NCBI GenBank assembly: GCA_030264375.1
Contig: JASCQW010000150.1
Location: forward strand, 36,125,803-36,189,802
Direction: 5' to 3'
Origin: Carcharhinus longimanus
Taxonomy: Eukaryota
DNA: 64,000 bases
Shown here: one piece after another, positions 7,624 to 35,962 of the stretch
How positions within the stretch are numbered: position 1 is the stretch's first letter
Layout of the letters: each line of letters starts with the position of its first letter
Notes under the pieces: model-generated
What the model was told of the DNA's origin: nothing
Seen by the model: only the letters and a program-made list of their open reading frames with translations
Database searches by the model: none
Translations under genes and position numbers: made by a program

Positions 7624-7950
7624 TTTAAATACTTCTGACACAAAGAAAGATGGCAGATGGAACAGAAACCAAGATATTTGTGTAATATTGGTATAAAACA
7701 CAGATCTCAATAGTTTAATTCTGTTCTGGACAGTCCCTCTCCTTAAAATAACATTGCACAGTTCCTGCAGGGACCCCAGGTGTTTGTTCGTTTCACCCAC
7801 TGGGGAAAGCTAGTTGGGCGGAACCAAATCATATTCAAAGACAGAAAGATGACTGGGTGAAACTGCCATCTCAATGCTCAAAGCTTCAATAGTTTTAACC
7901 CTATCCTCTGCAATATTTAAATAGCTCTCAATGTTCTGATTTTGATGAAA
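7624..7950 (+). other. Non-coding block paralogous to 23766-24090, upstream of Ig units 1 and 2
   Basis: cagtccctct..aaaataacattgca.agttcct..gacccc.ggtgtttgtt..tcaccca aligns between 7731-7799 and 23871-23939. Confidence 0.8.
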
Positions 7951-8129
7951 ATAGCTGATACTCTGATATAGAATTTATTTTGCAGATTGTAGAATAAATT
8001 TAACTGCTGGCTGACAGATAAAGTTGGTATTTGATGACTATAGCAGATACTCTGATAGAGAATTTATTTTGCAGATTGTAGAATAAATTTAACTGCTGGC
8101 TGACAGATAAAGTTGGTATTTGATGACTA
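7951..8129. repeat. 89-bp tandem duplication (2 copies)
   Basis: Units start at 7951 and 8040, near-identical (atagc.gatactctgata.agaatttattttgcag...ttgatgact). Confidence 0.95.
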
Positions 8130-8670: not shown

Positions 8671-8827
8671 TCTCATAACACCAGGTTAAAGTCCAACAGG
8701 TTTATTAGGTAGCAAAAACTTTCGGAGTCTTGCTTCTTCTTCAGGTGAATCACTTGAAGAAAGAGCGAGACTCTGAAAGCTTGTGCTACCAAATAAACCT
8801 GTTGGACTTTAACCTGATGTTATGAGA
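8671..8827. repeat. ~157-bp fold-back inverted repeat (Penelope-type pLTR pair)
   Basis: tctcataacaccaggttaaagtccaacaggtttatt..tcaggtga / tcacttgaag..aataaacctgttggactttaacctgatgttatgaga; arms are reverse complements about ~8749. Confidence 0.85.
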
Positions 8828-9430
8828 CCGTTTATTGTCCATAGAAAAGTGACACAGACTTCCAGTTTCTGAGNNNNNNNNNNNNNNNNNNNNNNNNNNN
8901 NNNNNNNNNNNNNNNNNNNNNNNNNNNNNNNNNNNNNNNNNNNNNNNNNNNNNNNNNNNNNNNNNNNNNNNNNNNNNNNNNNNNNNNNNNNNNNNNNNNN
9001 NNNNNNNNNNNNNNNNNNNNNNNNNNNNNNNNNNNNNNNNNNNNNNNNNNNNNNNNNNNNNNNNNNNNNNNNNNNNNNNNNNNNNNNNNNNNNNNNNNNN
9101 NNNNNNNNNNNNNNNNNNNNNNNNNNNNNNNNNNNNNNNNNNNNNNNNNNNNNNNNNNNNNNNNNNNNNNNNNNNNNNNNNNNNNNNNNNNNNNNNNNNN
9201 NNNNNNNNNNNNNNNNNNNNNNNNNNNNNNNNNNNNNNNNNNNNNNNNNNNNNNNNNNNNNNNNNNNNNNNNNNNNNNNNNNNNNNNNNNNNNNNNNNNN
9301 NNNNNNNNNNNNNNNNNNNNNNNNNNNNNNNNNNNNNNNNNNNNNNNNNNNNNNNNNNNNNNNNNGACGGGGGACTTGGAATCACTTTCAGGCAGTCAAT
9401 TTATAATGTTTAATCTCTGCTCTCTTACAG

Positions 9431-9751
9431 ATGGACAGACTCTGACTCAGACTCCGGATTTGACTGTGAAACCGGGAAACATGGCCACAATGGACTGTAA
9501 CACCGGAATCCAAAATAGCAATACTGTGAGCTGGTACAAGCAGACCCCGGGATCAACTCCTCAGTGGGTTCTCAGCTTTTACCACTCATGGGATGCCCCT
9601 AACTATGGTGCTGGGTTTAGCAGCGACCGATTTACATCCAGTGTCAAGAGTGACAACAGTATTTACCAGTTAATCATAAAGAATGTGGAGCTGAATGATG
9701 CTGCCGTCTATTATTGTGGAACGTGGGTTTCTTCGAGCAGCACCAATGTGT
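9431..9751 (+). CDS. Immunoglobulin light chain V segment, sigma-type (leader exon probably in gap 8874-9365)
   Basis: Acceptor tctcttacag|, open frame QTLTQTPDLTVKPGNMATMDC..VSWYKQTPG..long CDR2 FYHSWDAPNYGAGFSSDRF..DAAVYYCGTW; followed by an RSS. Confidence 0.93.
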
Positions 9752-9779
9752 CACAATGACAGAAGGTAAAACAAAAACT
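9752..9779 (+). promoter_or_regulatory. V 12-bp-spacer recombination signal sequence
   Basis: cacaatg (9752-9758) + 12 nt + acaaaaact (9771-9779). Confidence 0.93.
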
Positions 9780-10094
9780 GGCAACTGTAAATAACATACT
9801 GGCAATATTTTTGTAACTATTAGAACATATTGATGTTTTCCATTTCATAAAATTACCTCAATATTGTCCTTAATGTAAAAGTTTCAAATTGATATAATTT
9901 AATAATTGATAACAATCTGAATCTCACTGCCCAGTATTGAGTGTTGATGACATTTTACAACAACATTGTGGGTGTTACTGTGAGTTTATTCCTTATTGTC
10001 CCACATCAGCAGGAACACTGGGAATACATGAAGCCTGATTGATGCTGGACTGGAGAATCTGAAACGTGTTTTCTGTCTGATTTCCAGGATCAGG

Positions 10095-10133
10095 GATAAC
10101 TGTATGGACTGAATCCTAAAACATGACACTGTG
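10095..10133 (-). promoter_or_regulatory. J1 23-bp-spacer RSS with non-consensus nonamer
   Basis: gataactgt (10095-10103; 5/9 match to ggtttttgt) + 23 nt + perfect cactgtg (10127-10133). Confidence 0.75.
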
Positions 10134-10168
10134 GGTGCTTGGCCAAGGGACCAAACTCTTTGTCGCAG
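10134..10168 (+). CDS. Ig light chain J segment 1 (VLGQGTKLFVA)
   Basis: G GTG CTT GGC CAA GGG ACC AAA CTC TTT GTC GCA G|gtaagt; LGQG instead of FGxG. Confidence 0.9.
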
Positions 10169-13130
10169 GTAAGTGACTGGAAATCCCCTTGAAACTAGCT
10201 GTGTGAGTTTAGAAAATTAGAAATTAGTTACTAATTCAAACTCAGTTATTTCTTAGTAACTACTTTTTAATTGTCAATTTTACAATGAAAGTGCTGACTA
10301 CATGTTTACTCTCCAGCACCAGTTCAGTTAATTATTGCTGTGTTTCTCGATATTGCTCCTGGATGCCTCAATTTGTGCTGCCTGTGACAGCGGTGTTTCT
10401 ACATATTACTACTATTTTTAATTAATCAGTGAACTAATTTTACAATATCTTTCCAACATTTCCAATGAAAACTGATCTTTTCTAACAACTGGTGCAGATA
10501 GATTTTTGACCAATTTCTGGTGCCATTTTTCCTAAAATCTTATTGAAGAGCAAACTTGGAGAAAGGGATAAATTCTGTTTCTCCCTCATTGTTAGGCTAT
10601 TTTGTTCAACAGTTGTGGAATCTTCTCACTATTGGGTGCATTGGGATGGCTTGAATCTAAAAAAAATTCATTTGTGTAACCCCTTTAACATTATTTTAAA
10701 GGACTGTTATTGAAATGCCACTAAACACAACAGCCAATTATTATTCAGAAGTACTTTTTAGCAGTGTTGTTTCAAAGATTACTGACCAGCACACCAGGAT
10801 CTATCATATCCACCTGAAGTGCATAAGACATAGGAGTCATTTCAGAAAATCTTTTTCCAGGGAATAAAAAGACTACTACTGTGTTCACTTAGCATTCACT
10901 GATGTGTTGATCTTGAGCTAGTTCCAGACTCCATGTTTCCAATAGTCCACTCTCATTCCTGACTTTTTCTAGTATTCTGTGACCGTCTGTGTTGCTTCCC
11001 ACACCACTGATGAACTTAAATGTTTAATTAACTTTGCTTTCAGTTTCTGCCTTTCCTGCATCCATAGTGAACTCTTCCATTCTTTACTTGATTTCTGTGT
11101 CTCCATTTTTGAATATCAGCTATCAATCCTTATCCACCATAAACCGACTATCTCTCACAGCCACCTTGCCATACTTCTTGCGACCCTATTTCTTAAGAGG
11201 ACTCCATGCTAATCTTCCAGCTTCTCCTGACCAAAAAAGTCATTTCAGACTTCACAGATGCTGCCAGACTTGCTGAGTTTTTCCAGCACTTACTGTTTCT
11301 GTTCCAGTTTCTTTGTCTCCTTTTTAACTGTTGTGATGATGCCACCCTTTGTAGCAGTGTCTGTATGTTTTCCTTTTTCCTTAATCTGCTTCCCAACAAT
11401 TTATGCCGTCCCTCAAATGTAATAAACACACCCAGGCACTTAACAAGAGTATTATAAAACAAAATATGACACAAAGCCACATAAAGAGATTTTGACCAAG
11501 CCATTTTGAGGAGTGTCTTAAAAGAGGAAAGTGAGACACAGAGGATGAGGGAGAGAACTGCAGAATTTAGGATCTTGAAAGCGAAGGGGCATCCATCAAT
11601 TATGCAGCAATTTCAAAGTGGGCATTTTCAACATCCGAGACAAGGCCAGTATTTGTTGTTCATCTCTAATTGCCCCTGAGAAGCCACCTTCTGGAATCAC
11701 TGAAATCCATAAGTTGTAGATATTTCACTGCTCCCCCCTCCCCACTGTGAATGTTTATAGAACGGTTGCATTCTGGTTCATTCCAAACACTTTCAAACTA
11801 GGCAGTTGATCTTTTTCTCAAATCAGGGAAAGACGAAAGGACATTTGAAATTTAAACAGACCGTCATTTCCCCAACAGCTGCTTCCACCCGCAGCCAATC
11901 CCACCTTCCTGCACTGTTTGAGAGACCTTCGACCCCTCTGGCACCATCACATTCAACTCTCCAGCCTCTGAAGCACAGTGTCCTATTAAACTCCACACAC
12001 TGTCACCTTGTCTCCCATTCACAGTCTCCTTGTTCATGCTGAAATTTTCCTTCCAACACCCATCAAAAGAGGTTCCATTCTTCAATTCCTCTGTTTTTCC
12101 CTTCCCTTCATTCTCATTCATTGACCTCATTGCTGCTCTGAGTCTTGTTACTGTGATTCTATTGGTTGCACATCCTGAGCCAGAAGGTCAGGTTTTGTGG
12201 TGAATTCACTGCAGTGGTGATTCTCTCTGTAACTGGACACAGGATTGACACTGTGGTGAAAGATTTGCTGGTTTTGTGCTCCATGTTTGTCTTTTGAGTG
12301 TTACTATCCAGACCTCGTCCTTCACTGCTGGCTCAGTGTGGGCTGCTCCTGGTTGTCATATTGACACTGAGCCTGTAGCTTCATGTTGCTGCATCATGTA
12401 CATTTCTGTGTGTCATTCAGCACTTGACAGTTTTTCTTTCTTTTAGAAAACACTTTGCAATTTTCTATTTCTAACTTTGTGTAGTTGGATTTTGAGAATC
12501 GTCCTTCCCATTCCCACAGGCTCATGTCTAGGGAATTGTGAGCCCTCTTATCTCTTTCCAACTGACCGTTCATCCCTGATTAACCAGTACAGTGAGTATT
12601 GGCGAGTCATTGAATTATTAAGAATCTACTCCTGTCCTCATCTCATCCCTACAACTGACCCTTTCAGTCAGGCAGGATGGGAGCATCCAAAATGGTCACT
12701 GGGTATCAGGTAGGAAAGAGGCTGTTAGTATTTTTGACCTCTCCAAAAACAGGCTAAATGTATGTGCAGTGAAACATCATGACAGACCATTGACCAACCC
12801 TGGGATGGAGAATGAAATGTCCCTGCTACATTCACCCGAAGTCAACAATTTCACATTGACTGGGGATAGTATCTGGGGTCCGGAGGTGAAGGTCCCACAG
12901 TGAACGCTGCTCTAATCCACAGAGTCAGCAGGAGGATACTAAACAATAACTTTTACATCAAAATTAGTACTTCCTTTTTAATTTTAGATTGAACCTAAAT
13001 AATCATCCAATAAACTTCTGGGGTCCATTATAGGAATAGCAACATTTCAAACCTGCTTCAATCAAACTCTGAAATGATCCCAAGTTTTTGTCCAACTTCA
13101 TACAAACTTGTTTTCTGTTTCTGATTACAG

Positions 13131-13453
13131 CTCAGCAACTCCCTGCCCCTTCAGTGAAACTGCTGGGACCTTCAGCCGATGAGCTGTCCACTAAAGGAGC
13201 TGGCNNNNNNNNNNNNNNNNNNNNNNNNNNNNNNNNNNNNNNNNNNNNNNNNNNNNNNNNNNNNNNNNNNNNNNNNNNNNNNNNNNNNNNNNNNNNNNNN
13301 NNNNNNNNNNNNNNNNNNNNNNNNNNNNNNNNNNNNNNNNNNNNNNNNNNNNNNNNNNNNNNNNNNNNNNNNNNNNNNNNNNNNNNNNNNNNNNNNNNNN
13401 NNNNNNNNGCAGCTTCAAAAACAACCGCAACTGCCTCACAATCCAACTGTTAA
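13131..13453 (+). CDS. Ig light chain constant exon, sigma-type (centre 13205-13408 unsequenced)
   Basis: Acceptor ctgattacag|, phase matches the J donor; AQQLPAPSVKLLGPSADELSTKGAG..AASKTTATASQSNC*; the gap preserves frame (~107 aa); terminal Cys. Confidence 0.88.
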
Positions 13454-25057: not shown

Positions 25058-25325
25058 GTAAACTATTCTAATATTTTACATTTCATAAAAACACTTTAAT
25101 TTTTTCTTTGTGCAATATTTTCCAATTGATACAATTTAATAATGGATGAAATTCTGAACCTCAGTACCCAGTACTGTGTCAATGACATTTTACTGCCTGT
25201 GTGGGTGTTGCTGTGAGTTCATTCCTTACTGTCCCACACCAGCAGGAGCACTGGGAATACGTGAAGGCTGATTAATGCTGGACTGGAAAATCTGGAACGT
25301 GTTTTCTGTGATTTCCAGGATCCGG

Positions 25326-25399
25326 GATAACTGTATGGATTGAACCCTAGAACATCACACTGTAGTTGTTTGGCCAAGGGACCAAACTCTTAGTTGCAG
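25326..25399 (+). pseudogene. Ig light chain J segment 2 with inactivated RSS
   Basis: gataactgt + 23 nt + cactgta (essential position mutated), then LFGQGTKLLVA G|gtaagt; flanks align with 9810-10320. Confidence 0.85.
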
Positions 25400-26760
25400 G
25401 TAAGTGGCTGAAAACTACCCCTGCAGAAGTGTGAATTTGTAGATGTAGTAATTCATTTACAATTTAAACTATTCTTCAAACACTTGTACTGTGTGAAACT
25501 GCTGACTCTACGTTTAACGTCTAACACTTTCTGTAAATTAGTCTTATGTTTTCACATCAGATCTGTTTGACGTCTTGATTTGTGCTGTATTTCTAGTACT
25601 AATTGTTTAGTGCTATTTCTCTGAATTAACGCAGCGTTTCTAGCTTTGAATGTGCTGTATAGCTTTTTCTATGAGCACACATGTCGCTGTCTATTAATTG
25701 ACTAAGTAATTTTTGAGTAGTTGAAGGTCTTGTTCGTGGCTCAGAGGTGGCATCCCTTCCTTGGTGCCAGAAGCTCTGCTTTCCACTCCTATTGCAGGAC
25801 TTGATGACTATGGAGGTATCATGACCAAGCAGTTGGGTTACGAGTCTGTAAACACTCCCTCAACAGCAGGAGAGTCTCCTCATTGGCCAGACTGCAGAAG
25901 GCATACCACTGCACTACATAATCATGGACCAATCCAGATTTTGGGGCATTGTACTTTAAGTAGGAGGAATTTTGAGTGCATTCAATTGTGCTCAGCTCTA
26001 TTTTTAATTCTGAAAATTAATAGAACCACCTCATTCTCAAAACTCTGCACGAACATGGAAACAAAAGCAGAAAAAATCTGGCTCAGTATAATCTGGTTTG
26101 TTTAAACCTAAGATGGAAGGAGTGGTATTGGAAAGGTATAATTGTAAAGTCTGGATGTATGCACATGAATGATGCAGAGTTAAGAACTGAAATTGAGGAA
26201 TGCTGTGCAAAGATTTAGGAAAAGCAATTCTGTTCTTAGCCCCAGCAGCAGAGATCACTAATTCATAGTGAAAGTCAGTATCAATGTTATCCTTAACTAG
26301 GCTGTTGAAGTCAACTCAATTGTCCAAGATGTATACGTTCATTGGCTGATGCCAGTCTTGGGCTGGAGCCTTGGGGAGAGAGAGTTATTAATAGTCTAGT
26401 ATTTCAGATTACTATAATAATCCAGAGGAAGTATTCAAATGCCATTGCAATAATTGGAGAATTTGAATTCCATTTATTCAAACGTTGCATTTTTGTTGTT
26501 AAAAACCCAAATTGTTCAATATCTTCAGGAAAGTTTGGGACTTCAGTTCCACACCAATATGTTAACTGCCCTCTAATAGCCACTCCATTGTATCCAACAG
26601 CTATCAATGGTTCAAGATGTAGACCCATCATCACCTCCGGGCAACTTAATGAGGGACTGTTGCAAGTGATGCCCACATTCCAAAAATTAATGGGGGAAGG
26701 GATTGCAGTGTAATCCACTAAACTATCTATATAACTTGTTTCCTCTGGTTCTGATTACAA

Positions 26761-27068
26761 TTCAGCAATTCCCTGACCCTTCAATAAAACTGCTGGGACC
26801 TTTAGTTGATGAGTTGTTCACTACAGGCCCATTAGTTTGTCTAGTCAGCAAACTATCTACGGGCTTTACTATGGTCATTTGATGGGAATCTGATGAGCAG
26901 TGATGTCCAAACCAGTGTGACGTCACAGAACTCAGACAACACCTTCAGTCTCAGCAGCAATTGACAGTCACTGGCAGAGATTGGAGCAGTGAGAAGGTAT
27001 ACTCCTGTACAGTTCAGCAAGGAGCAGCTTCAAAAACAACCACAACTGCCTCACAATCCAACTGTTAA
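26761..27068 (+). pseudogene. Ig light chain C pseudogene 2 (sigma-type)
   Basis: Acceptor mutated (ttacaa); QQFPDPSIKLLGP..LVCLVSKLSTGF, stop at 26880-26882, indels, ..DNTFSLSS..DWSSEKVYSCTVQQGAASKTTTTASQSNC*. Confidence 0.92.
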
Positions 27069-35830: not shown

Positions 35831-35962
35831 ACTCTTTGCCTGGCCAGCAAATTATCCATGAGTTTCGCTGGGGCTAGTTGGACAGTCACTGGGAGTCCAA
35901 AAACAGTGGGTTTCCCTATCCATCGCAGTTGTGGAACACAATCTCAACAGCTACCTGGTGGT

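Follow-up and report, generated by a model that had tools for sequence, protein, structure and literature searches.

Splicing from a donor within the V recombination signal of an unrearranged, putatively sigma-type shark light-chain cluster: a likely sterile germline transcript

Background

Sterile light-chain transcripts were reportedly described by Iacoangeli in 2017. In sharks, IgH and IgL that have not rearranged are known to give sterile transcripts, and promoters are found only together with V; RNAs of unrearranged V-J-C minigenes keep their recombination signals (RSSs) and encode no full-length chain (PMC5192425). Mammalian J-kappa germline transcripts and the human JC-kappa RNA also retain RSSs and have J spliced to C before recombination, and they start at J-adjacent promoters and lack V (PMC4283955). 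In sturgeon and paddlefish, the IgL4 sigma genes have a V-only frame and an acceptor upstream of J, carry no RSSs and do not rearrange, their J-C gene having a leader of its own (PMC5985310). Fish are not known to have a surrogate light chain, and the order of their heavy- and light-chain rearrangement is open (PMC5192425, PMC3570791); neither VpreB nor lambda5 has been reported there.

Here we describe a 64-kb stretch of shark DNA (the window; G000:C150:36125803-36189802, within which all positions below are counted). It carries an unrearranged Ig light-chain minigene with V, J and C in a single orientation and 12/23 RSSs, as in a V-J-C cluster. RNA contigs of related organisms resemble the sterile shark transcripts, with the difference that the V-J spacer is spliced out, from a donor inside the V-RSS to a conserved acceptor that lies 46 nt upstream of J. 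Whereas the mammalian RNAs begin without V, the shark splice keeps V and has no conserved J-C start codon. The sturgeon genes share the isotype (motifs compared by eye), the V-only frame and the position of the acceptor, but the shark cluster has RSSs, rearranges and has a J exon closed by stops. Its recombination-independent V-only frame also recalls the surrogate light chain VpreB/lambda5; unlike that system, the shark cluster has no unique tails, dedicated genes or lambda5-like partner.

Methods

The run search returned 14 holders, none of which was recorded as RNA and eight of which were guessed to be RNA; four of these eight (X1, X3, X5 and X8) were analysed. They are assembled contigs from related organisms (three organisms, three studies) and were aligned to positions 9400-13204. 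Such contigs prove neither a single molecule, a start site nor an expression level, and depths were not used for ranking isoforms. Joints with GT..AG ends at the J-C splice in 3 of the 4 runs, together with a leader joined to V in X3, indicate that the runs behave as spliced RNA.

Results

The features of the window are listed in Table 1. We assign the cluster to the sigma type on the basis of its 12/23 RSS order, a long CDR2 (about 8 residues by hand count), its nearest proteins and a by-eye match to the sterlet. Sigma-type FR3 and C motifs are present, and the V and C exons match sterlet V-sigma and C-sigma by eye (supplement of PMC5985310). The proteins nearest to V are a catshark V (71%) and teleost V domains (51-57%), with the motif YG.GFSS common to them. 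Atlas and PDB searches returned generic V domains only, and the protein search with the C exon gave no match at E<=1e-10 among 3 candidates (58-188 aa only).

Table 1. Features of the window, with their support in paralogous copies (L002, L004, unit 2) and in relatives' contigs (X1, X3, X5, X8)
Feature	Position	Strand	Remarks
N gap	8874..9365	+	probable site of the leader exon
V exon, sigma-type, unrearranged	9431..9751	+	Pfam V-set 2.8e-15; acceptor AG at 9429-9430
V-RSS	9752..9779	+	heptamer 9752-9758, 12-nt spacer, nonamer 9771-9779; in-frame TGA 9757-9759
Used donor AAG/GTAAAA, within the V-RSS spacer	9766..9771	+	joint 9763->10086, GT..AG, cut +2, in X3, X5 and X8
Germline intron, the whole V-J spacer, 322 nt	9766..10087	+	322 nt in L002, 320 nt in L004
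Predicted donor GTGAGT	9980..9985	+	no use seen in the contigs; of background strength; L004 has lost the GT
Conserved non-coding block in the spacer	9986..10040	+	identity 95% in L002, 89% in unit 2, 73% in L004
Conserved, used acceptor	10066..10087	+	relatives' contigs and paralogs
J-RSS and J exon	10088..10168	+	81 nt in this copy, against 83 nt in L002 and L004
J-RSS, 23-nt spacer	10095..10133	-	consensus heptamer; nonamer 5/9
Two-codon uORF, Met-Asp-stop	10104..10112	+	in 4/4 copies; upstream of ATG 10123
ATG in the J frame, this copy only	10123..10125	+	paralogs and relatives' contigs
J segment WVLGQGTKLFVA	10134..10168	+	donor GTAAGT at 10169; J-C joint in X1, X3 and X8
C exon	13131..13453	+	middle inside N gap 13205-13408
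Unit 2, pseudogene copy of spacer and J lacking V	25071..25470	+	heptamer CAC mutated, J-frame stops, no ATG
Unit 2 C pseudo-exon	26761..27068	+	acceptor AG mutated; stops and frameshifts

Among 79 V-type matches in the genome, three are sigma-like (the window, L002 and L004); all three are unrearranged and keep the V-RSS donor. The spacer and J region has 5 matches in the genome, and a pattern search gave 7, corresponding to the 4 known copies and 3 unrelated sequences. In L004 (G000:C20805, 70-330) the V is frameshifted near its start and has a stop just before the heptamer; it is likely a pseudogene, though both used splice sites are kept. The fourth copy, unit 2, has neither V nor V-RSS and, judged by its mutations, is a pseudogene over its whole extent (25071-27068). 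Light-chain genes of another isotype with germline-joined VJ (L008 and L009, G000:C133) lie elsewhere in the genome.

An intact sister C exon (L026) lies about 5 kb before the window, and a short remnant of another sigma C exon (22 aa, 73% identity) is found at 35834-35960. A leader exon was not found by tblastn in the window or in the 40 kb upstream. In an X3 contig, a leader-like sequence is joined to V at 9431, and its translation resembles the leader of the catshark gene model P0002. The L002 contig begins at the same base where the window resumes after the gap (L002 1-20 against window 9366). This start at the gap edge, and the gap in the C exon, point to a probable collapse of repeated leader and C exons in the assembly, which makes the pairing of V-J with C uncertain. 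Upstream of V, the window also contains an imperfect palindrome of 157 nt (88%) at 8671-8827 and an 89-nt tandem duplication at 7941-8129.

The J-RSS nonamer (10095-10103) agrees with the consensus at only 5 of 9 positions and is identical in all 4 copies; this weakness may limit or slow sigma rearrangement. Rearrangement does take place at the locus, since an X3 contig has a joint (9745->10136) whose ends are not GT..AG and which fits a V-J coding joint of the ordinary kind.

Contigs of all four runs pair the acceptor at 10087 with the V-RSS donor, as a joint in three and, in X1, as a loose end at 10086 bearing the V end, the heptamer and the start of the spacer, beside a V contig ending at 9766. 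The donor GT occupies positions 8-9 of the 12-nt V-RSS spacer, which is identical in the 3 V-bearing copies. Because the donor lies within the V-RSS and is joined to 10087, the 322-nt V-J spacer is removed, and the product is an unrearranged V-(RSS)-J-C RNA. Each listed splice into 10087 starts at 9766, so the transcript keeps V. Each of the three V-bearing genomic copies retains the full spacer, which speaks against explaining the joint by a germline deletion. Some contigs keep the J heptamer, and contigs that cross the spacer and 9980 unspliced (X1 record 2, X3 record 10) come from the same runs as spliced forms. A spliced, RSS-retaining sterile transcript had been proposed in an original prediction made on this DNA; such RNA from the unrearranged locus is indeed seen in the relatives' contigs, though spliced from 9766 and keeping V.

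Divergence between the relatives' V contigs and the window reaches about 8%. Record 25 of X8 (405 nt) spans 291 nt of V, and equal-depth joints have sides of 82 and 32 nt, the sum of the three being 405, which suggests that V, the exon and C lie on one path. Two more X8 joints into the exon (9717->10093 and 9731->10095, intervening letters not known) may represent the same splice in divergent paralogs and were excluded from the count. In the papers covered by a literature search, no description of a donor within the V-RSS of shark sigma genes was found, and term searches of PMC2435157, PMC3014032 and PMC4279169 likewise turned up nothing relevant; the splice may be in print already.

The acceptor is identical at 22/22 positions in L002 and L004, against a background identity of 67% in the L004 spacer (P about 1.6e-4), and in L004 it is kept better than its neighbours, the RSS exon and J, which are both at 85%. 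Over the 631 nt compared between the window and L004, no stretches of identity are longer than 10066-10090 (25 nt) and 9757-9780 (24 nt), which are the two intron ends. This conservation hints at selection on both ends; the RSS spacer is also constrained for RAG, and gene conversion is possible.

The original prediction had paired this acceptor with another donor, GTGAGT at 9980, to define a 108-nt mini-intron with both splice sites conserved. The motifs lie where it had placed them (GTGAGT at 9980, AG ending at 10087, and TAA AAC ATG at 10117-10125 with A at -3), as do the unit 2 counterparts of donor (25213) and acceptor (25318), with ATC replacing ATG. The acceptor proved functional, being used in the relatives' RNA contigs and conserved above chance (22/22 in L002 and L004). 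The mini-intron found no support. The joint 9979^10088 is not listed among the contigs of the 4 relatives' runs, an absence that is not proof since contigs drop rare forms; the GT is lost in L004; and the donor, at 7/9 of MAG/GTRAGT, is of background strength, 138 such sites (2.2 per kb) occurring on the + strand of the window. Its 6/6 retention is at chance level, as expected from local identity (P=0.78 for L002, 0.48 for unit 2). Between unit 2 and the window, identity is 88-89% inside the supposed intron and 100% of 6 nt and 91% at its ends; the interior being as conserved as the ends, the 9980-10087 block is not conserved like an intron. Within it, the stretch 9986-10040 is possibly a J-proximal regulatory element; it contains TGGGAAT and GGAA motifs resembling Ikaros and ETS sites.

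As had been foreseen, the 81-nt exon 10088-10168 is followed by GTAAGT and spliced to 13131 (X1, X3 and X8), and translation across this splice gives MTLWVLGQGTKLFVA-AQQLPAPSVK. The ATG that opens this frame is in frame in one of the 4 genomic copies covering the exon. A TG is inserted behind 10129 in 4/4 runs, and the same TG is present in L002; an X3 contig matches 10101-10164 with the TG as the sole difference. The ATG at 10123 is thus in frame only because the window copy lacks this dinucleotide, a 2-nt loss in a TG run that may be a real allele or an assembly error. In the 83-nt exon of L002 the ATG opens an out-of-frame peptide of 24 aa, and it is absent from L004 and unit 2. The lack of a clear signal peptide, already noted as a caveat, was confirmed: only two residues precede J, and reading from the acceptor in phase 1 meets a stop at 10117. 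A sturgeon-like L-J-C arrangement, with a leader spliced to the acceptor, was rejected, as it meets an in-frame stop in the window and, by eye, in the other 3 copies too. LGQG was considered as a mark of a decayed J and dropped because the X3 contig has the same J, the TG being the only difference.

When spliced in silico, the window and L002 show stops after V and again in the RSS exon, and no frame encodes a complete chain; a recombination-independent full chain is thereby excluded. The unrearranged V ends at VSQ*, as stated in the original prediction, through the TGA at 9757-9759, which falls in the heptamer. The last junction, that of J with C, follows this stop at a distance of 87 nt (89 with the TG).

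Discussion

The RNA spliced from the V-RSS donor to 10087 and from J to C is likely a sterile germline transcript and a predicted substrate of nonsense-mediated decay (NMD). This reading combines the 9765^10088 and J-C splices in the relatives' contigs, the identical genomic sites, the V-frame stop in the heptamer and an 83-nt exon without an open J-C frame. Stops lying more than 50-55 nt above the last junction predict decay, and by this rule the distance of 87 nt predicts it here. We propose that transcription would start at the V promoter and include the leader, that the donor within the V recombination signal would be joined to 10087 and J to C, and that the resulting RNA would be cleared by NMD. 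Both splice ends are probably selected so that transcription across both RSSs is processed like that of an mRNA before recombination; a link to the opening of the locus is conceivable, and the weak J nonamer may prolong the unrearranged state. Both splice sites are deleted by V-J recombination, which confines their action to the time before rearrangement.

The splice shows one 12-nt RSS spacer serving both as a RAG signal and as a splice donor. As the 9765^10088 junction exists only before V-J joining, it would be a precise marker of cells with an open, unrearranged sigma locus, and it offers a direct test for the existence of a V-only product. Germline RNAs containing V, J and C could also be miscounted as rearranged in shark repertoire data.

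The same RNA would arise if the splicing were incidental and cryptic, a functionless by-product whose donor is kept by RSS constraint and whose acceptor is kept by hitch-hiking or gene conversion near the J-RSS. The used donor reaches only 7/9 of the consensus, there are 1.6 equally pyrimidine-rich acceptors per kb, the copies are paralogs in tandem and the product has a premature stop, all of which such an accident would accommodate. It accounts poorly, however, for the L004 acceptor, intact at 22/22 where the RSS exon and J are both at 85%, and for an identical splice in three organisms despite V divergence of up to about 8%, and we consider it unlikely.

A more doubtful proposal is that sigma clusters hide a selected V-RSS donor that gives rise to a processed mRNA for a secreted, VpreB-like chain. 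The spliced germline RNA would escape decay and encode leader and V only, ending at VSQ, for use with IgH before light-chain rearrangement. A leader-V frame with its own stop does exist, its leader being seen in X3 and not in this assembly; in the window and L002 it finishes cleanly at VSQ*, and the VSQ end is shared by 4 of 5 homologues, teleost or unnamed (P0003, P0004, P0006 and P0007). This end is nevertheless automatic wherever V finishes in GTGT before the heptamer, and the GTGT, overlapping the start of J, may be retained for joining. Without J, a V domain misses its G strand, and the stop 87 nt above the last junction speaks against escape from decay. An intact J-C partner was not found, unit 2 being broken. 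Nor is the cluster a dedicated, non-rearranging gene with a unique C-terminal tail: it has RSSs, yields a V-J-type joint (X3, 9745->10136) and adds two residues beyond V, and the V of L004 is frameshifted. On the other side, the sigma genes of sturgeon and paddlefish are split into leader-V and leader-J-C genes, for which a VpreB/lambda5-like role was suggested by the authors (PMC5985310). If the proposal were true, the shark cluster would represent an ancestral light-chain gene of dual use, which sturgeons later fixed in the form of split sigma genes. The frame linking the V end and the heptamer appears common to sharks and bony fish, as seen from the VSQ ends.

The lambda5- or JC-kappa-like J-C chain of the original prediction, made from a transcript started in the spacer with the donor at 9980 and the ATG at 10123, is very improbable: every motif is present in the window copy, the block at 9986-10040 could be regulatory and PMC4283955 cites a report of a JC-kappa protein in humans, but the ATG is in frame in 1/4 genomic copies and the TG in 4/4 runs shifts the frame, no conserved in-frame start, leader or N-terminal extension was found and a uORF precedes the ATG, the 9980 donor is lost in L004 and in the contigs is either spanned by a joint or passed unspliced (the lack of a listed joint weighing little, as rare forms are dropped), the acceptor is joined to V in the splices listed (though contigs cannot show starts), and JC-kappa was not found in mice according to the same source. 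The block 9986-10040 also weakly matches the tail of the catshark gene model P0002 (7/11 aa, E 1.2), and that model treats a similar stretch as its last exon.
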